A stretch of 13,521 nt of DNA, taken from IMG/VR virus record IMGVR_UViG_2526164613_000010; one strand, written 5' to 3'. Positions 2 through 13,521 of this stretch are shown in pieces (positions within the stretch are counted from its first letter, which is position 1; each line of letters starts with the position of its first letter). Source of the stretch: a virus. Lineage: Duplodnaviria; Heunggongvirae; Uroviricota; Caudoviricetes. A model generated the notes under the pieces. It searched no databases and was not told the DNA's origin. It worked only from the letters and a program-made list of their open reading frames with translations. The position numbers were made by a program, and so were the translations under genes.

Positions 2-628
2 GGCGGTGTCAAAATTCCGCACCTTTTCCCTGGTGATGATCTGAAACTACAGACTGCGCAGGATTCAGACAATGGATTTTCTGCGCTTGAACAGGCGCTG
101 CTGCGGTATATCGCCGCCGGTCTTGGCGTTTCCTACGAACAGTTGTCCCGTGATTACTCGAAGGTCAGTTACTCAAGTGCCCGCGCATCCGCCAATGAGC
201 CGTGGCGCTATTTTATGGGGCGGCGAAAATTTATTGCGGCCCGGCTGGCCACGCAGATGTTTTCCTGCTGGCTGGAAGAGGCACTTCTTCGGGGGATTAT
301 TCGTCCGCCACGGGCACGTTTTGATTTTTATCAGGCGCGATCAGCCTGGTCACGGGCAGAGTGGATTGGAGCCGGAAGAATGGCCATTGACGGGCTCAAG
401 GAAGTCCAGGAATCGGTGATGCGCATTGAGGCCGGACTGAGCACGTATGAGAAAGAGCTGGCGCTGATGGGCGAGGATTATCAGGACATTTTCCGCCAGC
501 AGGTCAGGGAATCTGCAGAGCGGGAAAAAGCCGGACTCTCACGTCCGGTGTGGATAGCGCAGGCGTATCAGCAGCAGATAGCGGAGAGTCGCAGGCCGGA
601 AGAGGAGACAACACCCCGTGAGACGTAA
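2..628 (+). CDS. B: Portal protein, 5'-partial (gene starts upstream of the window)
   Basis: Frame 2 is open from position 2 to TAA at 626-628. Translation (GGVKIPHLFPGDDLKLQTAQDSDNG...MAIDGLKEVQESVMRIEAGLSTYEKE...) matches the C-terminal third of lambda gpB as I recall it. The track ORF 143..628 is the internal-Met version of the same frame. Confidence 0.9.
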   Translation, partial: GGVKIPHLFPGDDLKLQTAQDSDNGFSALEQALLRYIAAGLGVSYEQLSRDYSKVSYSSARASANEPWRYFMGRRKFIAARLATQMFSCWLEEALLRGIIRPPRARFDFYQARSAWSRAEWIGAGRMAIDGLKEVQESVMRIEAGLSTYEKELALMGEDYQDIFRQQVRESAEREKAGLSRPVWIAQAYQQQIAESRRPEEETTPRET

Positions 629-926
629 TCTTTCACACATTATTGCCGCAGCATTCAATGAACCGCTGCTTCTGGAGCCCGCCTATGCGCGGGTTTTCTT
701 TTGCGCGCTCGGGCGCGAGATGGGGGCAGCAAGTCTTTCGGTACCACAGCAGCAGGTACAGCTTGATGCTCCCGGAATGCTGGCTGAAACGGACGAGTAC
801 ATGGCCGGAGGTAAACGACCGGCCCGTGTTTACCGGGTGGTGAACGGTATTGCTGTACTGCCGGTGACCGGCACGCTGGTGCACCGGCTGGGGGGATGCG
901 GCCATTTCCGGAATGACTGGCTATGA
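618..926 (+). CDS. C: Prohead protease/scaffold gpC, N-terminal segment in frame 0; frame is lost near the G6 run at 890-895
   Basis: GTG start at 618 overlaps the portal stop and follows GAGGAG at about 602-607. Translation RRNLSHIIAAAFNEPLLLEPAYARVFFCAL...NGIAVLPVTGTLV matches the lambda gpC N-terminus (NLPHIASMAFNEPLMLEPAYARVFFCAL...NGIAVLPVSGTLV). Homology then continues in frame +1, not frame 0. Confidence 0.75.
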   Translation: MRRNLSHIIAAAFNEPLLLEPAYARVFFCALGREMGAASLSVPQQQVQLDAPGMLAETDEYMAGGKRPARVYRVVNGIAVLPVTGTLVHRLGGCGHFRNDWL

Positions 927-1863
927 CGGCATTGTCGCCTGTCTTCAGCAGGCAATGGCAGATAGCCAGGTGCGGGGCGTACTGCTGGACATTGACAGTC
1001 CGGGCGGGCAGGCCGCCGGCGCGTTTGACTGCGCTGACATGATTTACCGCCTCCGTCAGCAGAAGCCGGTCTGGGCACTGTGCAATGACACGGCCTGTTC
1101 TGCAGCCATGCTGCTGGCGTCGGCCTGCTCCCGACGGCTGGTTACCCAGACATCCCGTATCGGCTCCATTGGCGTGATGATGAGCCATGTCAGCTATGCC
1201 GGTCATCTGGCGCAGGCCGGTGTGGATATCACGCTGATTTACTCAGGGGCGCACAAGGTGGATGGCAATCAGTTTGAAGCGTTGCCGGCAGAGGTTCGCC
1301 AGGACATGCAGCAGCGGATTGATGCGGCGCGCCGGATGTTTGCCGAAAAAGTGGCGATGTATACCGGGTTGTCTGTTGATGCCGTCACGGGAACAGAGGC
1401 CGCCGTTTTTGAAGGTCAGTCCGGCATTGAGGCCGGGCTGGCGGATGAATTAATCAATGCGTCGGATGCCATCAGTGTGATGGCCACGGCGCTGAACAGT
1501 AATGTCAGAGGAGGCACTATGCCGCAATTAACTGCAACGGAAGCCGCCGCGCAGGAGAACCAGCGAGTGATGGGGATCCTGACATGCCAGGAAGCGAAAG
1601 GACGTGAACAGCTTGCCACGATGCTGGCAGGACAACAGGGCATGAGCGTTGAACAGGCCCGGGCGATTCTGGCCGCGGCGGCACCGCAGCAGCCGGTGGC
1701 ATCCACGCAGAGTGAAGCCGATCGCATTATGGCGTGTGAAGAAGCGAACGGTCGTGAACAACTGGCGGCAACGCTGGCGGCGATGCCGGAGATGACGGTA
1801 GGAAAAAGTCCGCCCGATCCTGGCTGCTTCACCGCAGGCGGATGCCGGACCCTCACTCCGTGA
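913..1863 (+). CDS. C: Prohead protease gpC core (S49/ClpP-SppA-like serine peptidase) plus the start of the Nu3-like scaffold domain; frame-shifted relative to segments on both sides
   Basis: Translation MTGYDGIVACLQQ...GVLLDIDSPGGQAAGAFDCADMIYRLRQQKPVWALCNDTACSAAMLLASACSRRLVTQTSRIGSIGVMMSH...LIYSGAHKVDGN matches lambda gpC (MTGYNGIIARLQQ...ILLDMDTPGGMVAGAFDCAD...). Homology extends upstream of the ATG at 913 in this frame (GDAAISG), so the gene really begins at 618. Confidence 0.85.
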   Translation: MTGYDGIVACLQQAMADSQVRGVLLDIDSPGGQAAGAFDCADMIYRLRQQKPVWALCNDTACSAAMLLASACSRRLVTQTSRIGSIGVMMSHVSYAGHLAQAGVDITLIYSGAHKVDGNQFEALPAEVRQDMQQRIDAARRMFAEKVAMYTGLSVDAVTGTEAAVFEGQSGIEAGLADELINASDAISVMATALNSNVRGGTMPQLTATEAAAQENQRVMGILTCQEAKGREQLATMLAGQQGMSVEQARAILAAAAPQQPVASTQSEADRIMACEEANGREQLAATLAAMPEMTVGKSPPDPGCFTAGGCRTLTP

Positions 1864-1870
1864 TCAGATC

Positions 1871-2122
1871 ATGGCACTGGATGAGGCAAAAGGGGCTGAG
1901 GCGCAGGCTGAACAGCTGGCTGCCTGCCCGGGAATGACTGTGGAGAGCGCCCGGGCTGTGCTGGCTGCGGGATCAGGTAAGGCAGAACCGGTCTCTGCAT
2001 CCACAACCGCCCTGTTTGAACGCATCATGGCGAACCATTCACCGGCAGCGGTACAGGGTGGCGTGCCACAGACGTCAGCAGACGGTGATGCGGACGTGAA
2101 AATGCTCATGGCCATGCCATGA
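1871..2122 (+). CDS. nu3: C-terminal scaffold (Nu3-like) segment of the C gene, in a third frame
   Basis: Translation contains the motif EAKGAEAQAEQLAACPGMTVESARAVLAA, resembling the lambda C/Nu3 C-terminal motif CEEAHGREEQARVLAETPGMTVKTARRILAAAPQ. The frame is open upstream from about 1802 and continues the homology of the previous segment. Confidence 0.6.
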   Translation: MALDEAKGAEAQAEQLAACPGMTVESARAVLAAGSGKAEPVSASTTALFERIMANHSPAAVQGGVPQTSADGDADVKMLMAMP

Positions 2123-2158
2123 AGTCAGTGCTGATCATCAACAGGAGGTTTTTACAAT

Positions 2159-2506
2159 ATGGTAACGAAAACCATCACTGAACAGCGTGCGGAAGTACGT
2201 ATTTTTGCCGGTAATGATCCGGCTCATACCGCCACAGGCAGCAGCGGGATTTCCTCGCCAACACCGGCACTGACGCCCCTGATGCTGGATGAAGCTACCG
2301 GGAAACTGGTGGTCTGGGACGGACAGAAAGCCGGTAGTGCGGTTGGCATACTGGTACTGCCGCTTGAAGGCACAGAGACGGTACTGACGTATTACAAGTC
2401 GGGGACCTTTGCGACGGAGGCAATCCGCTGGCCTGACAGTGTGGATGAACACAAAAAGGCAAATGCCTTTGCCGGCAGTGCCCTGAGTCACGCGGCGCTG
2501 CCGTAA
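2159..2506 (+). CDS. D: Head decoration protein gpD
   Basis: AGGAGG at 2143-2148, ten nt upstream of the ATG. The 115-aa product (NDPAHTATGSS...TPLMLDEATGKLVVWDGQKAGSAVGIL...YYKSGTF...ANAFAGSA) closely matches lambda gpD. Confidence 0.92.
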   Translation: MVTKTITEQRAEVRIFAGNDPAHTATGSSGISSPTPALTPLMLDEATGKLVVWDGQKAGSAVGILVLPLEGTETVLTYYKSGTFATEAIRWPDSVDEHKKANAFAGSALSHAALP

Positions 2507-2514
2507 CACGTTAT

Positions 2515-2534
2515 CAGGCCACCGCGGTGGCCTG
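2515..2534. other. Perfect 20-bp palindrome CAGGCCACCGCGGTGGCCTG in the D-E spacer
   Basis: Read directly: the first 10 nt are the reverse complement of the last 10. It lies 9 nt after the D stop and 30 nt before the E start. No clear T-tract follows, so it is not a canonical intrinsic terminator. Confidence 0.4.
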
Positions 2535-2563
2535 ACTGATTTCTGAATGAAAGGAACTGATTT

Positions 2564-3592
2564 ATGGGATTGTTTACGACCCGCCAGTTACTCGGTTATA
2601 CCGAACAAAAAGTGAAATTTCGTGCGCTGTTTCTGGAGCTGTTTTTCCGCCGTACGGTGAATTTCCATACCGAAGAGGTGATGCTGGACAAAATTACCGG
2701 AAAAACGCCGGTGGCGGCCTATGTCTCCCCGGTTGTTGAAGGAAAAGTGCTGCGTCATCGCGGTGGTGAAACCCGCGTGTTACGTCCGGGCTACGTCAAG
2801 CCGAAACACGAATTTAATTACCAGCAGGCGGTTGAGCGCCTTCCTGGTGAAGATCCATCTCAACTGAATGATCCGGCTTACCGCCGTCTGCGTATCATTA
2901 CCGATAACCTCAAACAGGAAGAGCACGCGATTGTCCAGGTGGAAGAAATGCAGGCGGTAAATGCTGTGTTGTATGGCAAATACACGATGGAAGGAGACCA
3001 GTTCGAGAAAATTGAGGTCGATTTTGGCAGGTCGACGAAGAATAACATCACTCAGGGTAGTGGTAAGGAGTGGTCAAAACAGGATCGTGACACGTTCGAT
3101 CCTACACATGATATTGACCTCTACTGCGACCAGGCCAGCGGTCTTGTGAATATTGCCATTATGGACGGTACTGTCTGGCGTCTGCTGAATGGTTTTAAGC
3201 TGTTCCGCGAAAAACTGGATACCCGTCGCGGCTCAAATTCACAACTCGAAACGGCAGTGAAAGACCTGGGGGCGGTGGTGTCTTTCAAAGGGTATTACGG
3301 CGATCTGGCCATTGTGGTGGCGAAAACGTCTTATGTGGCAGAGGACGGTACCGAAAAACGTTATCTGCCGGAGGGCACGCTGGTCCTGGGAAATACGGCT
3401 GCAGATGGGATCCGTTGTTACGGTGCCATTCAGGATGCGCAGGCGTTGTCCGAAGGTGTGGTGGCTTCTTCCCGTTACCCGAAACACTGGCTGACCGTGG
3501 GCGATCCGGCCCGTGAATTTACCATGACGCAGTCCGCACCGCTGATGGTGCTGCCGGATCCGGATGAGTTTGTGGTGGTGCAGGTGAAATAA
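2564..3592 (+). CDS. E: Major capsid protein gpE
   Basis: AAGGA at 2551-2555 precedes the ATG. The 342-aa product (...GYVKPKHE...DPAYRRLRII...VEEMQAVNAVLYGKYTM...LDTRRGSNSQLETAVKDLG...TGDPAREFTMTQSAPLM.LPDPDEFV) is near-colinear with lambda gpE (341 aa). Confidence 0.95.
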   Translation: MGLFTTRQLLGYTEQKVKFRALFLELFFRRTVNFHTEEVMLDKITGKTPVAAYVSPVVEGKVLRHRGGETRVLRPGYVKPKHEFNYQQAVERLPGEDPSQLNDPAYRRLRIITDNLKQEEHAIVQVEEMQAVNAVLYGKYTMEGDQFEKIEVDFGRSTKNNITQGSGKEWSKQDRDTFDPTHDIDLYCDQASGLVNIAIMDGTVWRLLNGFKLFREKLDTRRGSNSQLETAVKDLGAVVSFKGYYGDLAIVVAKTSYVAEDGTEKRYLPEGTLVLGNTAADGIRCYGAIQDAQALSEGVVASSRYPKHWLTVGDPAREFTMTQSAPLMVLPDPDEFVVVQVK

Positions 3593-3597
3593 TCCGT

Positions 3598-3630
3598 GAG
3601 CGGGGGCGAAATGCCCCCGTGTCTTTTTTC
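3598..3630 (+). terminator. Candidate rho-independent terminator or attenuator directly after the major capsid gene
   Basis: GC-rich stem CGGGGGC (3601-3607) pairs with GCCCCCG (3613-3619) around loop GAAAT, followed by TGTCTTTTTTC with a T6 run at 3624-3629. Confidence 0.55.
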
Positions 3631-3643
3631 ACAGGGGGCTGAT

Positions 3644-4027
3644 ATGGCAACAAAAGAAGAAAATCAGAAACGTCTTCGTCAACTGGCTGGCCTGCTGGGG
3701 CGCGAGGCGGATATGTCGGGGAGTGCTGCGGATATTGCGCAACGTGTGTCTGAGTGGGAAGAGGAGCTTGCTGCTTCCCGGGAGGGCATTATGCCTGGTG
3801 ATGAGAGCGGGCCTGAGCAAAATCACACAGACGATGGTGAGCAGTTGCACAACACTGATGCTACGGATGATGTTAAAGCGGTCCGTGTGCGGAAATGCCT
3901 GCATGTGATGGGGTATTGCCCGGAGACAGGCCGTCCCGTTGAACTGACGTACCGGGGCATGCGTGTTCTGGTGCCATCACCACTGGCGACAGCCATGATA
4001 CAGCACGGAACGGCTGAGCATGCGTGA
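3644..4027 (+). CDS. FI: DNA-packaging / head completion protein gpFI
   Basis: ATG at 3644 follows a GGGGG Shine-Dalgarno-like run at 3634-3638. The acidic product MATKEENQKRLRQLAGLL... is similar in character and position to lambda gpFI. The track ORF starting at 3596 extends back through the terminator hairpin and is less likely. Confidence 0.8.
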   Translation: MATKEENQKRLRQLAGLLGREADMSGSAADIAQRVSEWEEELAASREGIMPGDESGPEQNHTDDGEQLHNTDATDDVKAVRVRKCLHVMGYCPETGRPVELTYRGMRVLVPSPLATAMIQHGTAEHA

Positions 4028-4373
4028 TTTTCAGAATGCCTTTGATGCTGCCCTCGCCGGGGTGGACAGCACGATTGTTGAAGTGATGGGGCTCTGTGCG
4101 CAGTTCACCTCGGGGGCACAGTGTGGCAGCGAAGTTCAGGGGGTTTTTGACGATCCGGAGTCGCTGGGGTTTGCCGGTGGCGGGGTCCGTATTGAAGGAA
4201 GCAGCCCGTCATTATTTGTGCGGACGGATACGGTTCGTGCCGTGCGGCGTGGTGACACGCTGACCATTAATGGTGAGATATTCTGGGTGGATCGTGTTTC
4301 TCCGGATGACGGGGGCAGCTGTTATCTCTGGCTCAACCGTGGTCAACCACCCGCAGTTAACCGGCGACGATAA
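4020..4373 (+). CDS. FII: Head-tail joining protein gpFII
   Basis: Product (...VFDDPESLGFAGGGVRIEGSSPSLFVRTD.VR..RRGDTLTI....FWVDRVSPDDGGSCYLWL.RG.PPAVNRRR) closely matches lambda gpFII. Overlaps the FI stop by 8 nt (ATGCGTGA). Confidence 0.92.
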   Translation: MRDFQNAFDAALAGVDSTIVEVMGLCAQFTSGAQCGSEVQGVFDDPESLGFAGGGVRIEGSSPSLFVRTDTVRAVRRGDTLTINGEIFWVDRVSPDDGGSCYLWLNRGQPPAVNRRR

Positions 4374-4388
4374 ACGCAGGGTGAAATT

Positions 4389-4922
4389 ATGGCGATAAAA
4401 GGGCTTGATCAGGCGATTGACAATCTGAGCCGGGTTCGTAAAAACGCCATTCCGGCGGCTTCAGCAATGGCCATTAACCGCGTGGCCACAACGGCGATTA
4501 ATCAGTCTTCATCACAGGTTGCCCGGGAGACCAGGGTGAGCCGGAAACTGGTTAAGGAACGGTCCAGACTGAAACGGGCGACGGTCAGAAATCCGAATGC
4601 CAGAATTATCGTTAACCGCGGTGATCTCCCTGTGATTAAGCTGGGGATCAGGATGCCGGGGCGTCGCCCGAACAGCATACTTAAAGCCGGTCAGCATCGG
4701 TATCAGCGGGCATTTATTCAGCGATTAAAAAATGGTCGCTGGCATGTCATGCAGCGTGTGGCCGGGAAAAACCGTTACCCCATTGATGTGGTGAAAATCC
4801 CGATGGCGGCCCCACTGAAACAGGCATTTGATGAGAATGTTGACCGTATCCGGCGTGAACGCCTGCCTAAAGAACTGGCATCCGCGCTGAAACAACAACT
4901 GAGGATTGCAATAAAACGATGA
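4389..4922 (+). CDS. Z: Minor tail protein gpZ (tail completion)
   Basis: MAIKGLDQAIDNLSR...AMAINRVA...QVARETRVSRKLVKERSRLKRATV.NP.ARI.VNRGDLPVIKLG...AFIQ.LKNGRWHVMQRVAGKNRYPIDVVKIPMA.PL...RIRRERLPKEL matches lambda gpZ. Confidence 0.92.
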   Translation: MAIKGLDQAIDNLSRVRKNAIPAASAMAINRVATTAINQSSSQVARETRVSRKLVKERSRLKRATVRNPNARIIVNRGDLPVIKLGIRMPGRRPNSILKAGQHRYQRAFIQRLKNGRWHVMQRVAGKNRYPIDVVKIPMAAPLKQAFDENVDRIRRERLPKELASALKQQLRIAIKR

Positions 4923-5314
4923 AACACACTGACATTCGTGCCGCAGTGCTGGATGCACTCGAGCAGCATGAACACGGGGCGACGCTGTTTGATGGTCGCC
5001 CCGTTGTTTTTGACGAAGAGGATTTCCCTGCGATCGCGGTTTATCTGACGGATGCAGAGTATACCGGTGAAGAGCTGGATGCAGATACCTGGCGGGCCAC
5101 GCTGCATATTGAGGTGTTTTTACCGGCACAGGTACCGGATTCAGAGCTTGATCAGTGGATGGAAAGCCGGATTTACCCGGCGATGACCGCGATCCCGGCA
5201 CTGGCAGGACTGATTACCACGATGGTTACGCAGGGCTATGAGTATCGTCGTGATGACGATATGGCGTTATGGAGTTCTGCAGATCTGACTTATTCCATTA
5301 CATACGAGATGTGA
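4919..5314 (+). CDS. U: Tail terminator protein gpU
   Basis: [93 protein letters not shown]...[13 protein letters not shown] matches lambda gpU. ATGA overlap with the Z stop. Confidence 0.93.
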
Positions 5315-5321
5315 GGACGAT

Positions 5322-7335
<2,014 letters not shown>

Positions 7336-7348
7336 ACGGAGGTCATAC

Positions 7349-7780
7349 ATGTTTCTGAAAACCGAACAATTTGAATATAACGGTGTGTCTGTCACGCTTT
7401 CCGAATTGTCTGCGCTGCAGCGTATTGAGCATCTTGCCCTCCTGAAACGGCGTGCAGAACAGGCAGAATCCAGCGGCAACCTGCAGGTAAGCGTGGAAGA
7501 TCTCGTCAGAACCGGCGCGTTTCTGGTGGCGATGTCCCTGTGGCATAACCATCCGCAGAAAACGGCATCACCGTCAATGAATGAGGCCGTGATGCAGATC
7601 GAACAGGAGGTGCTCACCACCTGGCCTGCGGATGCCATTGCCCGGGCGGAAGATGTGGTGTTGCGTCTGTCCGGGATGAGCGGGGCTGTTCATGCGGATA
7701 CTGATAGCACCGAAGTGGCGAAAAATAACGCGCTGACTGATGATGATTTTTCTGCGGGAAAGTCTTCGACGGCGAGCTGA
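7349..7780 (+). CDS. G: Tail assembly chaperone gpG
   Basis: GGAGG at 7337-7341 precedes the ATG at 7349. MFLKTEQFEYNGVSVTLSELSALQRIEHLAL.KR.AEQAES...VED..RTGAFLVAMSLWHNHPQKT..PSMNEAV.QIEQEVLTTWP matches lambda gpG. The track ORF start at 7277 overlaps V and is not used. Confidence 0.92.
   Translation: MFLKTEQFEYNGVSVTLSELSALQRIEHLALLKRRAEQAESSGNLQVSVEDLVRTGAFLVAMSLWHNHPQKTASPSMNEAVMQIEQEVLTTWPADAIARAEDVVLRLSGMSGAVHADTDSTEVAKNNALTDDDFSAGKSSTAS
7756..7762 (+). other. Programmed -1 frameshift slippery heptamer G GGA AAG producing the gpG-T fusion
   Basis: In the G frame the codons are GCG GGA AAG, five codons before the G stop. The -1 frame is open from here into the T ORF (GKVFDGELNFALRLAREMGRPDW...). 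Same heptamer and position as the lambda G-T shift. Confidence 0.85.
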
Positions 7781-7806
7781 ATTTTGCCCTCAGACTGGCG
7801 CGTGAG

Positions 7807-8220
7807 ATGGGGAGGCCTGACTGGCGCGCCATGCTTGCCGGGATGACATCCACCGAATATGCCGACTGGCGACATTTTTACCGTACGCATTATTTTCACG
7901 ATACCCAACTGGATATGCATTTTTCCGGGCTGACGTACGCCGTACTCAGCCTGTTTTTTTGCGATCCGGATATGCATCCCTCTGATTTCAGTCTGCTTGT
8001 CCCCCGGCATGAGGAAGAGCAGGTGGAGAGGCCGGATGAGGACAAAATGCTGATGCAGAAAGCGGCAGGACTTGCCGGAGGCGTCCGGTTCGGTGGGGAC
8101 GGAGGGCGCGATATTTTATCGTCTGCGGATGTGGCGGATGTCATGGTGGATGATGCCGCATTAATGATGGCTTCAGCGGGGATTCCGGGAGGTGTGAGAT
8201 ATGTCCCAGCCGGTTGGTGA
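7807..8220 (+). CDS. T: Tail assembly chaperone gpT ORF, expected to be expressed only as a G-T fusion (7349..7762 joined in the -1 frame to 7762..8220)
   Basis: REMGRPDWRAMLAGM.STEYADW..FY.THYFHD..LDMHFSGLTY.VLSLFF.DPDMHP.DFSLL...LMQKAAGLAGGVRFG.DG...ADVAD...DD..LM..S.GI.GGVRY matches lambda gpT. There is no independent RBS; the first in-frame Met is at 7807. Confidence 0.88.
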   Translation: MGRPDWRAMLAGMTSTEYADWRHFYRTHYFHDTQLDMHFSGLTYAVLSLFFCDPDMHPSDFSLLVPRHEEEQVERPDEDKMLMQKAAGLAGGVRFGGDGGRDILSSADVADVMVDDAALMMASAGIPGGVRYVPAGW

Positions 8221-10780
8221 TCTTGTTATTGACCTGAGTCTGGATGCGGTCCGTTTCGATGAGCAGATGAGCCGGGTAAGGCGTCATTTTTCAGGTCTGG
8301 ATACCGACGTCAGAAAAACCGCCAGTGCTGTTGAACAGGGCCTGAGCCGCCAGGCGCTGGCTGCACAAAAAGCCGGGATTTCCGTCGGGCAGTATAAAGC
8401 GGCCATGCGAACCCTGCCCGCACAGTTTACGGATATCGCCACGCAGCTTGCCGGTGGTCAGAATCCCTGGCTGATCCTGCTGCAACAGGGCGGTCAGGTG
8501 AAGGACTCCTTCGGCGGGATGATCCCCATGTTCAGGGGGCTTGCCGGTGCGATCACCCTGCCGATGGTCGGGGTCACCTCGCTGGCGGTGGCGACAGGTG
8601 CGCTGGTGTACGCCTGGTACCAGGGGGATTCCACGCTTTCAGCGTTTAATAAAACCCTGGTTCTTTCCGGTAATCAGTCCGGACTGACTGCCGATCGTAT
8701 GCTGACTCTCTCAAGAGCCGGGCAGGCAGCAGGGCTGACGTTTAACCAGGCGAGAGAGTCACTGGCAGCCCTGGTGAATGCCGGTGTGCGTGGTGGTGAA
8801 CAGTTTGATGCCATCAACCAGAGTGTCGCGCGTTTTGCGTCTGCATCCGGTGTGGAGGTGGATAAAGTCGCTGAAGCCTTCGGGAAGCTGACCACTGACC
8901 CGACGTCGGGACTGATGGCGATGGCGCGCCAGTTCCGTAACGTGACGGCAGAGCAGATTGCGTATGTTGCACAGCTGCAGCGTTCCGGAGACGAGGCCGG
9001 GGCATTGCAGGCGGCGAACGATATCGCCACGAAAGGCTTTGATGAGCAGACCCGTCGCCTGAAAGAAAACATGGGAACACTGGAGACCTGGGCGGATAAA
9101 ACAGGGAAGGCATTCAAATCGATGTGGGATGCCATTCTGGATATCGGTCGTCCTGAGTCCTCAGCGGATATGCTCGCCAGTGCACAGAAGGCATTTGATG
9201 AGGCGGATAAAAAATGGCAGTGGTACCAGAGCCGGAGCCAGCGCCGGGGAAAAACCGCCTCTTTCCGGGCCAACCTGCAGGGCGCATGGAATGACCGGGA
9301 AAATGCCCGTCTGGGGCTGGCAGCGGCCACGCTGCAGTCGGATATGGAAAAAGCCGGTGAACTGGCCGCCAGGGACCGGGCCGAACGGGACGCATCACAG
9401 CTGAAGTATACCGGAGAGGCGCAGAAGGCGTATGAGCGTCTGCTGACGCCGCTGGAGAAATATACCGCCCGTCAGGAAGAACTGAATAAGGCCCTGAAAG
9501 ACGGGAAAATCCTGCAGGCGGATTACAACACGCTGATGGCGGCGGCGAAAAAGGATTATGAATCGACGCTGAAAAAGCCGAAGTCGTCAGGAGTCAAAGT
9601 GTCAGCCGGTGAGCGTCAGGAAGACCAGGCGCATGCTGCCCTGCTGGCGCTTGAAACCGAGCTCCGGACGCTGGAAAAACACAGCGGTGCGAATGAGAAA
9701 ATCAGCCAGCAGCGTCGCGATTTATGGAAAGCGGAAAATCAGTATGCGGTCCTGAAAGAGGCAGCCACGAAACGGCAGTTATCTGAGCAGGAAAAATTCC
9801 TGCTGACCCATGAGAAAGAGACGCTGGAGTACAAACGCCAGCTGGCTGAGCTTGGCGACAAGGTTGAACACCAGAAACGGCTGAATGAGCTGGCACAGCA
9901 GGCGGCGCGGTTTGAACAGCAGCAGAGCGCGAAGCAGGCAGCCATCAGCGCAAAAGCCCGCGGCCTCACCGACCGTCAGGCGCAGCGGGAGTCGGAAGAG
10001 CAGCGCCTTCGTGACGTGTACGGTGATAATCCGGCTGCGCTGGCGAAGGCCACATCTGCACTGAAGAACACCTGGTCTGCGGAGGAGCAGCTTCGTGGAA
10101 GCTGGATGGCCGGGCTGAAGTCCGGCTGGGGCGAGTGGGCGGAAAGTGCGACGGACAGTTTTTCGCAGGTTAAAAGCGCGGCCACGCAGACCTTTGACGG
10201 TATTGCACAGAATATGGCGGGGATGCTGACCGGCAGCGAACAGAACTGGCGTGGTTTCACCCGTTCCGTGCTCTCCATGCTGACAGAGATTTTTCTGAAG
10301 CAGGCCATGGTGGGGATTGTCGGGAGTATTGGCAGCGCCATGGGTGGTGCTTTCGGTGGTGGGGCGTCTGCCTCCACGGGGACGGCCATTCAGGCTGCGG
10401 CGGCGAACTTCCATTTCGCGACCGGGGGATTTACGGGAACGGGGGGCAAATACGAACCTGCCGGTATTGTCCACCGCGGGGAGTTTGTCTTCACGAAGGA
10501 AGCAACCAGCCGGATTGGCGTCGGCAACCTGTACCGCCTGATGCGGGGCTATGCGGAAGGTGGTTATGTGGGCGGTGCCGGAAGTCCGGCGCAGATGCGG
10601 CGGACGGAAGGCATTAATTTTAATCAGAACAATCACGTGGTGATTCAGAACGACGGCTCCAACGGACAGGCGGGGCCGCAGCTGATGAAGGCGGTGTATG
10701 ACATGGCCCGCAAGGGGGCGCAGGATGAGATTCAGGCGCAGATGCGTGATGGCGGCGTCTTTTCCGGAGGCAGGCGATGA
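8201..10780 (+). CDS. H: Tail tape-measure protein gpH
   Basis: 859 aa against 853 for lambda gpH. Long colinear matches: M..PVGDLV.DLSLDA.RFDEQM.RVRRHFSG, AGISVGQYKAAMR.LPAQFTD.ATQLAGGQ.PWLILLQQGGQVKDSFGGMIPMFRGLAGAITLPMVG, and C-terminal ...GGFTGTGGKYEPAGIVHRGEFVFTKEATSRIGVGNLYRLMRGYA.GGYVG. Overlaps the T stop. Confidence 0.95.
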   Translation: MSQPVGDLVIDLSLDAVRFDEQMSRVRRHFSGLDTDVRKTASAVEQGLSRQALAAQKAGISVGQYKAAMRTLPAQFTDIATQLAGGQNPWLILLQQGGQVKDSFGGMIPMFRGLAGAITLPMVGVTSLAVATGALVYAWYQGDSTLSAFNKTLVLSGNQSGLTADRMLTLSRAGQAAGLTFNQARESLAALVNAGVRGGEQFDAINQSVARFASASGVEVDKVAEAFGKLTTDPTSGLMAMARQFRNVTAEQIAYVAQLQRSGDEAGALQAANDIATKGFDEQTRRLKENMGTLETWADKTGKAFKSMWDAILDIGRPESSADMLASAQKAFDEADKKWQWYQSRSQRRGKTASFRANLQGAWNDRENARLGLAAATLQSDMEKAGELAARDRAERDASQLKYTGEAQKAYERLLTPLEKYTARQEELNKALKDGKILQADYNTLMAAAKKDYESTLKKPKSSGVKVSAGERQEDQAHAALLALETELRTLEKHSGANEKISQQRRDLWKAENQYAVLKEAATKRQLSEQEKFLLTHEKETLEYKRQLAELGDKVEHQKRLNELAQQAARFEQQQSAKQAAISAKARGLTDRQAQRESEEQRLRDVYGDNPAALAKATSALKNTWSAEEQLRGSWMAGLKSGWGEWAESATDSFSQVKSAATQTFDGIAQNMAGMLTGSEQNWRGFTRSVLSMLTEIFLKQAMVGIVGSIGSAMGGAFGGGASASTGTAIQAAAANFHFATGGFTGTGGKYEPAGIVHRGEFVFTKEATSRIGVGNLYRLMRGYAEGGYVGGAGSPAQMRRTEGINFNQNNHVVIQNDGSNGQAGPQLMKAVYDMARKGAQDEIQAQMRDGGVFSGGRR

Positions 10781-11106
10781 AAACATTTCGCTGGAAAGTG
10801 AAGCCGGATATGGAGGTGAACTCGCAGCCATCGGTGCGTGAAGTGCGTTTTGGTGACGGGTATTCGCAGCGTATGGCGGCGGGGCTGAATGCTGACCTGA
10901 AAACATACCGTGTGACGCTTTCCGTGACCCGGGAGGAGGCCCGACATCTGGAGGCATTCCTGGCAGAGCACGGTGGCTGGAAGGCGTTTCTGTGGACACC
11001 GCCTTATGCCTGGCGGCAGATAAAGGTGACCTGTGCCGCCTGGTCATCACGGGTTCGCATGCTGCGGGTTGAATTCAGTGCCGAGTTTAAGCAGGTGGTG
11101 AACTGA
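10777..11106 (+). CDS. M: Minor tail protein gpM
   Basis: 109-aa ORF in the lambda M position, between H and L. ATGA overlap with the H stop at the 5' end and TGATG overlap with the L start at the 3' end. Confidence 0.85.
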   Translation: MKTFRWKVKPDMEVNSQPSVREVRFGDGYSQRMAAGLNADLKTYRVTLSVTREEARHLEAFLAEHGGWKAFLWTPPYAWRQIKVTCAAWSSRVRMLRVEFSAEFKQVVN

Positions 11107-11804
11107 TGCAGGATATTCACGAAGAAAGTCTGAACGAGTCGGTTAAATCAGAGCAGTCACCGCGGGTGGTACTCTGGGAAATCGACCTGACGGTACAGGG
11201 TGGTGAGCGGTATTTTTTCTGCAATGAGCTGAATGAAAAAGGGGAGGCGGTTACCTGGCAGGGGCGGCAATATCAGGCATACCCGATTGACGGCAGTGGC
11301 TTTGAGATGAACGGGAAGGGCAGCAGTGCCCGCCCGTCGCTGACGGTGTCCAATCTGTTCGGTCTGGTCACCGGAATGGCGGAGGACCTGCAGAGCCTGG
11401 TGGGGGCCACGGTGGTCCGCCGCCGGGTGTATGCCCGTTTTCTGGATGCGGTGAATTTTGTGGCGGGCAATCCGGAAGCGGACCCGGAGCAGGAGCTGAG
11501 CGACCGCTGGGTGGTGGAGCAGATGTCAGAGCTGACGGCCATGACAGCCTCGTTTGTGCTGGCAACACCGACGGAGACGGACGGAGCGCTGTTTCCCGGT
11601 CGCATCATGCTGGCGAACACCTGTATGTGGGATTACCGGGGAGATGAATGCGGGTATAACGGTCCTGCGGTGGCGGATGAGTTCGACAACCCCACCACGG
11701 ATATCCGTAAGGACAGATGCAGCAAGTGCATGCGCGGGTGTGAGATGCGCGGCATGGTGGCTAATTTTGGCGGTTTCCTTTCCATTAACAAACTTTCGCA
11801 GTAA
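11106..11804 (+). CDS. L: Minor tail protein gpL (tail tip; C-terminal cysteine cluster)
   Basis: MQDI..E.LNE....EQS..VVLWEIDLT..GGERYFFCNE.NEKGE.VTWQGRQYQ.YPI.GSGFE.NGKG.S.RP.LTVSNL.G.VTGMAED.QSLVG.TVVRR.VYARFLDAVNFV.GN..ADPEQE...RW..EQ.SEL...SASFVL.TPTETDGA.FPGRIMLANTC.W.YRGDECGY.GPAVADE.D.PT.DI.KD.CSKC...C......V.NFGGFLSINKLSQ matches lambda gpL. Confidence 0.93.
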   Translation: MQDIHEESLNESVKSEQSPRVVLWEIDLTVQGGERYFFCNELNEKGEAVTWQGRQYQAYPIDGSGFEMNGKGSSARPSLTVSNLFGLVTGMAEDLQSLVGATVVRRRVYARFLDAVNFVAGNPEADPEQELSDRWVVEQMSELTAMTASFVLATPTETDGALFPGRIMLANTCMWDYRGDECGYNGPAVADEFDNPTTDIRKDRCSKCMRGCEMRGMVANFGGFLSINKLSQ

Positions 11805-11809
11805 ATCCA

Positions 11810-12553
11810 ATGACACAGACAGAATCAGCGATTCTGGCGCATGCCCGGCGGTGTGTGCCTGCGGAGTCGTGGGGCTTCGTGGTGAGAACGCCGGAGGGGG
11901 AGCGGTATATCCCTTGTGTGAATATCTCTGCAGAGCCGGAGGCGTATTTTCGTATTGCACCGGAAGACTGGCTGCGGGCAGAGATGCAGGGGGAGATTGT
12001 GGCACTGGTCCACAGTCATCCCGGTGGTCTGCCCTGGCTGAGCGAGGCCGACCGGCGGCTGCAGATAAAAAGTGCACTGTCCTGGTGGCTGGTCTGCCGG
12101 GGGGACATTCATAAATTCCGCTGTGTGCCACATCTGACAGGACGGCTCTTTGAGCACGGGGTGACGGACTGTTACACGCTGTTCCGGGATGCATACCATC
12201 TGGCGGGAATTGATATGCCGGATTTTGAGCGTGAGGATGACTGGTGGCGCAATGGTCAGAACCTGTACCTGGACAATATGGAGGCGACTGGTTTTTACAG
12301 GATTTCCCTGCCTTCCGCACAGCCTGGCGATATCCTGCTGTGCTGCTTTGGCGCATCGGTGGCCAATCATGCCGCCATATACTGCGGCAACGGTGAACTG
12401 CTTCACCATCTGCCTGAACAACTGAGTAAACGGGAGAGGTATTCCGAAAAATGGCAACGACGAACGCATTCTGTCTGGCGTCACCGCCACTGGCACGCAT
12501 CTGCCTTCACGGGGATTTGCAACGATTTGGCCGCCGCCTCAGCCTGTATGTGA
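11810..12553 (+). CDS. K: Tail tip assembly protein gpK (JAB/MPN metalloprotease-like plus NlpC/P60 cysteine peptidase-like domains)
   Basis: MTQTESAILAHARRC.PAES.GFVV.TPEGERY.PCVNIS.EPEA...PEDWL.AEMQGEIVALVHSHPGGLPWLSEADRRLQ..S...WWLVCRG.IHKFRCVPHLTGR.FEHGVTDCYTLFRDAYHLAGI.MPDF.REDDWWRNGQNLYLDN.EATG.Y...L...QPGD.LLCCFG.SV.NHAAIYCG.GELLHH.PEQLSKRERY..KWQRRTHS.WRHR.W.ASAFTGI.NDL matches lambda gpK. JAMM-like HSHP...S..D and NlpC/P60-like Cys (DCYTL) and His (NHAAIY) are present. Confidence 0.93.
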   Translation: MTQTESAILAHARRCVPAESWGFVVRTPEGERYIPCVNISAEPEAYFRIAPEDWLRAEMQGEIVALVHSHPGGLPWLSEADRRLQIKSALSWWLVCRGDIHKFRCVPHLTGRLFEHGVTDCYTLFRDAYHLAGIDMPDFEREDDWWRNGQNLYLDNMEATGFYRISLPSAQPGDILLCCFGASVANHAAIYCGNGELLHHLPEQLSKRERYSEKWQRRTHSVWRHRHWHASAFTGICNDLAAASACM

Positions 12554-13131
12554 ACACGGCAGCGGAAGCCATCCGGGCGCTGTTGTTACAGGTGCCGGGA
12601 TTCCGCCGTCAGATGAACGAAGGCTGGTACCAGATACGTATTCGCGGTGAGGACACGGCACCGGAGGCGGTGTACGCCCGTCTTCACGAACCTCTGGGTG
12701 AGGGGGCGGTCATCCATATTGTGCCGCGACTGGCCGGAGCCGGAAAGGGCGGACTGCAGATTGTGCTGGGGGCGGCGGCCATCGTGGGGTCGTTCTTCAC
12801 GGCCGGGGCATCAATGGCGTTATGGGGTTCAGCCCTGGCAGCCGGTGGTTTTTCTGCCACCACGATGCTGTTTTCACTGGGGGCCAGCATGATTCTGGGT
12901 GGTGTGGCTCAGATGCTGGCCCCGAAGGCTAAAGTACCGGAGTACAAAAGCACGGATAACGGCAGACAGAACACGTACTTTTCGTCGCTGGATAACATGA
13001 TTGCCCAGGGGAACCCGATGCCGGTGCCTTACGGTGAAATGCTGGTTGGCTCCCGGCGAATCTCCCAGGACATCAGCACCCGTGATGAAGGCGGTGACGG
13101 GAAGGTGGTGGTTATCGGGCGGCAGGCATAA
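12451..13131 (+). CDS. I: Tail tip assembly protein gpI
   Basis: ...ARICL.GDLQRFGRR..L.V.T.AEAIRAL..Q.P.FR......GWYQ.RI.G.D........LHE.L..GAVIHIVPR.AGA..GG.FQIVLGAAAI.GSFFTAGA.....G.A..AGG......FSLGASM.LGGVAQMLAPKA..P....TDNG.QNTYFSSLDNM.AQGN..PV.YGEM.VGSR..SQ.IST.DEG.....VVVIGR matches lambda gpI. About 100 nt overlap with the 3' end of K, as in lambda. Confidence 0.9.
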   Translation: MATTNAFCLASPPLARICLHGDLQRFGRRLSLYVNTAAEAIRALLLQVPGFRRQMNEGWYQIRIRGEDTAPEAVYARLHEPLGEGAVIHIVPRLAGAGKGGLQIVLGAAAIVGSFFTAGASMALWGSALAAGGFSATTMLFSLGASMILGGVAQMLAPKAKVPEYKSTDNGRQNTYFSSLDNMIAQGNPMPVPYGEMLVGSRRISQDISTRDEGGDGKVVVIGRQA

Positions 13132-13142
13132 AACATAAAAAA

Positions 13143-13174
13143 TCCCGCAGTGCTCACGGACAGGAACTGCGGGA
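13143..13174 (-). other. Hairpin in the I-J spacer, terminator-like when read on the minus strand
   Basis: TCCCGCAGT (13143-13151) pairs with ACTGCGGGA (13166-13174) around a 14-nt loop. On the plus strand an A-rich tract AAACATAAAAAA at 13130-13141 precedes it, overlapping the last base or two of the I stop; on the minus strand that is a T-tract trailing the stem. The loop is large for an intrinsic terminator. Confidence 0.3.
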
Positions 13175-13304
13175 GAGTTACGAAGATTAACTATAGAGAG
13201 TTATTCTTATGTCACGACAAAAAACATTAACGCAGAGAAATTATTAGCGCCACAGTCAGTGTGTGAAAATGTGAAGATATTCAGAATTTTTATTCAGTCA
13301 TGAT

Positions 13305-13338
13305 ACAGGCATCCTCCGGGATGCCTGTTGTTTTTGTG
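13305..13338 (+). terminator. Strong rho-independent terminator-like hairpin in the I-J spacer, about 30 nt upstream of the J start
   Basis: 10-bp stem ACAGGCATCC (13305-13314) pairs with GGATGCCTGT (13319-13328) around loop TCCG, followed by TGTTTTTGTG. Confidence 0.55.
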
Positions 13339-13369
13339 CGTAACAGTTATCACAGTAAAGGGTGAGACA

Positions 13370-13521
13370 ATGGGCAAAGGTGGCGGCAAGGCGCACACGC
13401 CGGTAGAGGCAAAGGACAATCTTAAGTCCACGCAGATGATGAGCGTGATTGATGCCATTGGTGAAGGGCCGATTGAAGGTCCGGTGAAGGGGCTGCAGAG
13501 TATCCTGGTGAACAAAACCCG
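13370..13521 (+). CDS. J: Tail tip / host-specificity protein gpJ, 3'-partial (continues beyond the window)
   Basis: MGKGGGKAHTPVEAKDNLKSTQMMSVIDAIGEGPIEGPVKGLQSILVNKT matches the lambda gpJ N-terminus (MGKGSSKGHTPREAKDNLKSTQLLSVIDAISEGPIEGPV.GLKS.L.N.T). A GGGTGAG Shine-Dalgarno-like motif lies upstream. Confidence 0.92.
   Translation, partial: MGKGGGKAHTPVEAKDNLKSTQMMSVIDAIGEGPIEGPVKGLQSILVNKT

Follow-up and report, generated by a model that had tools for sequence, protein, structure and literature searches.

Does the head gene cluster of a 13,521-nucleotide (nt) Caudoviricetes stretch, IMG/VR record IMGVR_UViG_2526164613_000010 (hereafter the window, meaning the whole stretch that was analysed), carry a scaffold module that has been multiplied relative to phage lambda, and if it does, is the multiplication peculiar to this prophage or an established property of its head gene? 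The window coincides with the entire draft contig AIFR01000021.1 (assembly GCA_000249515.2) and represents the late region of a lambdoid prophage, with portal, protease/scaffold, decoration, major capsid, head-tail, and tail genes. The original prediction, made from the letters alone, read three tandem copies of a unit of about 50 amino acids (aa) in the C-terminal region of the lambda C/Nu3-type gene, gave lambda one copy, suggested that such an expansion could alter procapsid assembly, and proposed that the repeats had promoted a frameshift within the second copy by slippage or mis-assembly. We conclude that window 1558–2008 is very probably the triplicated scaffold module of a phage 21-type head gene, as part of the overall explanation developed below.

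The units and the segment following them were delimited as listed here, the units by translation, by mapping onto phage 21 record M81255.1, and by hidden Markov model (HMM) matches, and the tail by the boundary motif family D2/D5.

1558–1716, plus strand: unit 1, with its core 'Tri1 box' at 1586–1689 and a longer RVMGIL N-terminal helix, as in lambda
1717–1858, plus strand: unit 2, with its core 'Tri box' at 1726–1837, broken by an extra A at 1800
1859–2008, plus strand: unit 3, with its core 'Tri3 box' at 1868–1981
2009–2122, plus strand: C-terminal tail, opening with the unit-boundary motif for a fourth time (ALFERIMA; 2017–2031 in the DNA) and ending in the stop codon at 2120–2122

Translation of window 1519–2122 needs a single frame change, at 1800, to read three consecutive units of 47–53 aa each. 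Unit 1 reads RVMGILTCQEAKGREQLATMLAGQQGMSVEQARAILAAAAPQ... and unit 3 QIMALDEAKGAEAQAEQLAACPGMTVESARAVLAAGSGK..., unit 2 reads RIMACEEANGREQLAATLAAMPEMTV(E)KVRPILAASPQ... (also written RIMACEEANGREQLAATLAAMPEMTVEKVRPILAASPQ...), and the ERIMA motif stands directly after unit 3, where the tail starts ALFERIMA. As a conserved element of ~40 aa, each unit follows the pattern (I/L)xxxEAKGRExLAxxLAxxPGMTVExAxxxLAAAP. Local BLOSUM62 scores between unit pairs were 87–97, against 25–29±5 for composition-preserving shuffles (z=10.6–14.4; 0 of 2000 shuffles as high), and in the repaired protein an HMM built from the units gave three full-length matches (78–88 bits), where lambda C gave exactly one. In gp6, the product of the nested scaffold gene described below, three separate stretches matched PHROG 8399 ('head scaffolding protein') and three matched PHROG 8940 (Nu3-like capsid assembly). 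The internal repetition is thus strong at the protein level and faint in DNA, where the top stretch, with copies 150 nt apart, was 73% identical across 49 nt. Codon-aligned units agree at 57–68% of DNA positions and share no exact run longer than 8 nt, and Tandem Repeats Finder reported no repeat in 1400–2200 because the units are too diverged at that level; a short boundary DNA motif (family D2/D5) nevertheless stands at 1719, 1861, and 2017. Both the three tandem units, with one in lambda, and their predicted position at 1555–2050 were upheld by these comparisons.

The lambda sequence quoted in the original prediction, RIMGILNCEEAHGREEQARVLAETPGMTVKTARRILAAAPQ, matches NC_001416 exactly, and the unit occurs once in lambda C/Nu3 (4418–5737 and 5132–5737 of that record). 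It is 53–63% identical to the window units and is flanked by the same RIM/RLM helices, with ALDRLM after it as the equivalent of the window boundary motif. Lambda also resembles the window in having an S49 protease gene with a nested in-frame scaffold gene and a common C-terminus, placed between the portal and the D/E-type genes. However, the one lambda unit is preceded by a ~50-aa non-repetitive linker where the window has three units, and Nu3 starts inside the protease domain, whereas gp6 of phage 21 starts just before unit 1. The two scaffolds are nearly equal in length (201 aa for lambda Nu3 and 200 aa for phage 21 gp6); selection for equal scaffold length was considered as a reason, an idea weakened by common variants in which the nested product would be ~150, 181, or 250 aa (sizes derived from those of the full-length proteins).

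The three-unit repeat is an already known, annotated property of the phage 21-type head gene. In M81255.1 ('Bacteriophage 21 head gene operon'), gene 6 carries three repeat_region features (Tri1 box, Tri box, Tri3 box; 'function unknown; putative') at 5542–5645, 5682–5792, and 5823–5936, and these boxes of 104–114 nt map onto the three window cores listed above. Genes 5/6 of phage 21 are the same gene as that of the window (98.6% DNA identity), with the same nested ribosome-binding site (RBS) and start and the same boxes at matching positions; the window copy differs by three 1-nt indels, which leave truncated products as written, and by ~20 substitutions with a few amino-acid changes (e.g. 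EKARP to EKVRP and MFEHFMA to LFERIMA). The phage 21 head genes were reportedly first described by Smith and Feiss in Gene in 1993; literature searches on 'Tri box' and the phage 21 scaffold found no paper in the collection that was searched. Phage 21 is viable with the three-unit arrangement, and it was re-sequenced in 2022 as OL657228, with the same three units and nested gene 6 (PMC9119081). We found the three-unit form in 19 isolated phages, in ~1,870 of the 5,426 complete E. coli genomes (frequently with 2–4 copies each), and, in a single open frame, in 80 of 80 IMG/VR loci, all of them near-identical, so that the last scan is a frame check and is uninformative on diversity. Three units are accordingly the normal condition in phage 21 and related phages, and the expansion is not special to this prophage. 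As a discovery the triple repeat carries little weight, because the public annotation of phage 21 has shown it since the early 1990s.

Two further features define the gene in which the units lie.

618–2122, plus strand: lambda C-type/phage 21 gene 5-type head maturation protease and scaffold gene (assigned by homology, PF01343, PHROG 53, and gene order)
1508–1521, plus strand: RBS GAGGAGG-N4-ATG of the nested scaffold gene, with the ATG at 1519–1521 (identical to the phage 21 gene 6 start)

As written, the window copy lacks an uninterrupted frame owing to the three indels and is split over three open reading frames (ORFs 618–926, 913–1863, and 1871–2122). It is 99.8% identical to the 'S49 family peptidase' gene of E. 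coli O55:H7 strain DEC5B. PF01343 is on record for the 316-aa ORF 913–1863, identifying an S49 peptidase, and gives E=3.7e-35 for phage 21 gp5 and 1.5e-44 for lambda C, with the S49 (SppA/ClpP-fold) domain lying in the N-terminal two thirds; PHROG 53 'head maturation protease' also matches the window gene. The gene order, Phage_portal_2, protease/scaffold gene, HDPD (decoration), and Phage_cap_E (major capsid), is that of C/gp5-type genes. The nested RBS and ATG are identical to those of gene 6 as annotated in M81255.1 and of CPT_21_06 in OL657228, which points to an internal start in frame with the protease. The nested gene is phage 21 gene 6, the analogue of lambda Nu3, its expression being predicted from these identities, and MPQLTATEAA... 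proteins are called by gene callers in many assemblies. The original prediction was right to assign the region to the scaffold part of a C/Nu3-type gene.

How old is the triplication, and how usual is it? An initial homologue search with gp6 alone returned mostly fragments. A profile of the window units, run against 1.84 billion representative proteins, returned 428 clusters at E≤0.001. Among the best 150 of the 428, 57 of the proteins of at least 350 aa had one unit, one had two, one had three, and one had none, the rest of the 150 being shorter or fragmentary, and nearly all of these having one unit. Two hits of this search were false positives: P0268, an ankyrin-repeat protein with 8 'stretches' and no unit, and P0274. 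A species-level scan, with one genome per species, found one unit in the lambda-type, Enterobacter, Kluyvera, Klebsiella, Citrobacter, and Phytobacter/Kosakonia copies and in alphaproteobacterial ones (Rhizobium, Hoeflea, Sulfitobacter, and others), and three in the 21-type copies of E. coli, Shigella, and E. albertii and, at a greater distance, in those of Trabulsiella guamensis and Providencia alcalifaciens. Salmonella-type homologues, at 58–62% overall identity, keep all three units with the motif intact. The comparison of copy number among homologous C genes that had been proposed had this outcome: one unit is the usual state across Proteobacteria, and three are conserved in one sublineage, that of phage 21. 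Unit 1 is 69–79% identical across lineages, against 41–55% to units 2 and 3, and is clearly orthologous across these lineages. Given this orthology, the 57–68% DNA identity between units, and the conserved Salmonella copies, the triplication is old and maintained, not recent. Separately, three stand-alone proteins of ~190–225 aa (P0244, P0329, and P0351), which have no protease domain, each hold two diverged copies of the unit, so the module was duplicated more than once, in unrelated scaffold-like proteins.

The frameshifts of the window gene call for an explanation of their own. The closest finished relative of the window is DEC5B, and over window 407–12471 the only differences from it, with no substitutions, are three 1-nt indels, all in the protease/scaffold gene and all located by alignment.

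890–895, plus strand: first indel, a G-run one base shorter than in DEC5B
905–907, plus strand: second indel, one T missing from the run present in phage 21 and DEC5B, giving with the first a 2-nt frame shift
1800, plus strand: third indel, an inserted A that turns GTGGAAAAAG into GTAGGAAAAAG

With the extra A, as written, both gp5 and gp6 end early, at the stop codon 1861–1863. The first two indels lie in homopolymers of the protease domain, ~900 nt upstream of the repeats and outside them. No complete E. coli genome gives a match above 99.8%, and each O55:H7 genome holds 2–4 paralogous copies of the protease/scaffold gene.

These data allow the competing accounts of the repeat and of its frameshift to be weighed together. 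Were the likeness of the units merely compositional, i.e. Ala/Glu-rich low-complexity helical sequence in place of duplication, one would expect an Ala-rich region such as this one and a Pfam scan such as ours, in which the unit matched no family (the sole match, to HHH at E=0.097, fell short of any threshold); yet the observed scores were never approached by shuffles of the same composition, and EAKGRE...LA...MTVE.A..LAAAP is conserved position by position in the 428 representative clusters, by which this explanation is refuted. Equally refuted is the notion that faulty assembly, or a recent expansion in this prophage alone, produced the three units. It draws on the window being a short draft contig with clear quality problems in this very gene, but phage 21 showed three units when sequenced in 1993 and again in 2022, as do the 19 isolated phages, the ~1,870 complete E. 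coli genomes, and distant hosts, and units with such low inter-unit identity and exact runs of no more than 8 nt cannot be confused by reads. The same low identity makes slippage unlikely. The original prediction of a frameshift inside unit 2 was correct, since the extra A lies there, and a causal part for the repeats, through slippage or misalignment between units, could appeal to that position, to independent frameshifts in or near unit 2 in other genomes, and to the unit-scale rearrangements that the region does undergo (see below). The lesion is, however, a single inserted A in non-repeated context and not a unit-scale event, the other two indels lie in homopolymers outside the repeats, and three indels as the sole differences from DEC5B in 12 kb form a pattern that fits draft consensus errors, so we regard slippage as very unlikely; nor did mis-assembly between repeats hold up, given that inter-unit identity is too low for reads to be mis-assigned. 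The three indels are unrelated to the repeats and most likely are either draft-assembly errors or private lesions in an already crippled prophage. Their occurrence, with no substitutions in 12 kb, in a gene with several paralogues per genome fits consensus errors in a draft, and private lesions are also plausible since the prophage is already defective by ISEc31, an insertion in a tail gene. Telling against draft error are that the A at 1800 is not in a homopolymer, and is thus no homopolymer error, and that independent frameshifts in or near unit 2 occur in other E. coli genomes (P0041, P0046, and P0218), which together make genuine decay in cryptic prophages plausible as well; in addition, AIFR01000021.1 may come from a strain other than DEC5B. 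The frameshifts are best handled as defects of the draft contig and not as repeat biology.

What the units might do is suggested by their predicted fold and by the lambda system. The AlphaFold2 model of a single unit has three short helical segments in the core, with a predicted local distance difference test (pLDDT) score of 85–87 for residues 1–30 and 79 for residues 31–40, and each unit is predicted on this basis to be an independent three-helix mini-domain. The whole-gp6 AlphaFold model is of low confidence (pLDDT 60; predicted template modelling score, pTM, 0.24) and was used for secondary structure only, its pTM indicating no fixed arrangement between units; neighbouring units are predicted to be joined by ~10 flexible residues, and in the phage 21 lineage the module takes the form of three beads on a string. 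In the explanation that we favour, the long product gp5, which corresponds to lambda C, is an S49 prohead protease, and gp6, which is translated from the nested start at 1519 and corresponds to lambda Nu3, is the scaffolding protein; the same three units plus tail stand at the end of both. Each unit would then be a docking or assembly module bringing scaffold and protease into the growing shell, where it would bind the major capsid protein, other scaffold or portal molecules, or both, and three copies would render gp6 multivalent in cis. The ancestral state is probably one unit, as in lambda and most proteobacterial homologues; an old triplication is fixed in the phage 21 sublineage, and later microhomology-mediated deletions and duplications probably gave rise to prophage variants with 2, ~2.5, or 4 units and to one with a duplicated block. 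We infer the docking role and the multivalency from general knowledge of scaffolding proteins and from the interaction record of lambda Nu3, for which contacts with E, C, B, and itself come from published work and yeast two-hybrid data (PMC3224144). The unit is, moreover, the one strongly conserved element common to protease and scaffold across distant phages, a widespread mini-domain of lambda-like head modules in Proteobacteria that has neither a Pfam family nor a solved structure.

In P22 gp8, the C-terminal helix-turn-helix is the coat-binding domain of the scaffold (PMC11922011, PMC11565965), i.e. a small helical C-terminal module docking on the capsid protein, and a comparable role is the one we propose for the unit. 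No sequence or significant structural similarity was found between the two, and we do not treat them as homologous; the P22 module is single and basic, whereas the window units are near-neutral/acidic, tandem, and common to scaffold and protease. It may instead be that the units do not dock on the capsid protein and serve scaffold self-association, recruitment of the portal (gp4/B), or as a substrate or tether for the protease, which we hold to be quite possible while leaning against it. Nu3 self-interaction, Nu3–B, and C–Nu3 contacts are on record for lambda and the charge of the unit is unlike that of the P22 coat-binding domain, but a Nu3–E interaction is reported too (PMC3224144), and the data at hand do not discriminate between partners; being the sole strongly conserved element common to protease and scaffold fits any targeting role. 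Two points weigh against multivalent docking on the capsid protein: the charge difference makes the P22 analogy loose, and the frequency of variants with two to four units implies that exact valency is not critical or that some of the variants are defective.

These variants were found among full-length E. coli homologues, whose length classes match unit-scale rearrangements.

451/452 aa: two units, with hybrid junctions QEA/NGREQL or APQ/ADAGPS
472 aa: a hybrid unit
482 aa: a 19-aa deletion within unit 2 (representative P0129, seen on 1000 contigs or more)
501 aa: three units
551 aa: four units (junction PGMT/EMTVEK)
657 aa: a block of 156 aa duplicated in tandem

The one junction compared at the DNA level, that of the 451-aa class, falls in an 8-nt stretch common to units 1 and 2. 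The 657-aa protein P0092, from a finished genome, has a duplicated block spanning unit 1 to the start of unit 3, which gives five full units and one partial. No description of this copy-number polymorphism was found in the literature, to which our access was limited, and we present it, with the one-unit rule and the conservation of three units in the sublineage, as new here. We raise, tentatively and as a rather doubtful proposition, that in lambda/21-type scaffolds the unit number (1, 2, ~2.5, 3, or ≥4) sets a valency that varies in nature, would arise by microhomology-mediated recombination between diverged units, and would tune how many capsid subunits a scaffold or protease chain engages and so the efficiency or fidelity of prohead assembly. 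If that were true, natural alleles would make it possible to test directly what the Tri boxes do, a function that the 1993 annotation gave as unknown; the variation provides ready alleles for asking which partner the module has and whether valency matters. A separate case is P0056, a 174-aa E. coli protein on a 9.4-kb contig in which the N-terminal part of another protein, starting MTLKRACSLLTVKSF and presumably similar to HK97-type prohead proteases, is fused directly to unit 3 and the tail of the 21-type scaffold. Either a mosaic head module has exchanged its protease type and retained the scaffold unit, or the protein is an assembly chimera.

Elsewhere in the window, an IS3-family ISEc31 transposase (two ORFs with a programmed frameshift; 5613–6826, minus strand) lies inside the tail tube (V-like) gene, which flanks it at 5322–5603 and 6862–7335. 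The identical insertion is found in DEC5B, so the prophage is defective whatever the indels in the C gene. The window ends, 1–406 and 12472–13521, show many substitutions relative to DEC5B and the central 12 kb none, a pattern to be expected if a draft assembly is broken up or mixed between paralogous lambdoid prophages. In DEC5B, the tail assembly genes are followed closely by a sodC gene (Cu/Zn superoxide dismutase) carried on the prophage. Window 13239–13369 has no alignment to DEC5B, which resumes beyond sodC, indicating that the cargo region (window 13294–13515, minus strand) differs between the two.

Finally, C genes nearly identical to that of lambda turned up in unrelated assemblies (loci L093, L099–L120, L124, L132–L133, L135–L136, and L141), with hosts that include Neobacillus, Paenibacillus, Pseudomonas, Bradyrhizobium, Kitasatospora, Veillonella, and an Akkermansia metagenome-assembled genome. 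They lie on short or low-coverage contigs, some of 48.4–48.5 kb, and are almost certainly lambda DNA contamination.
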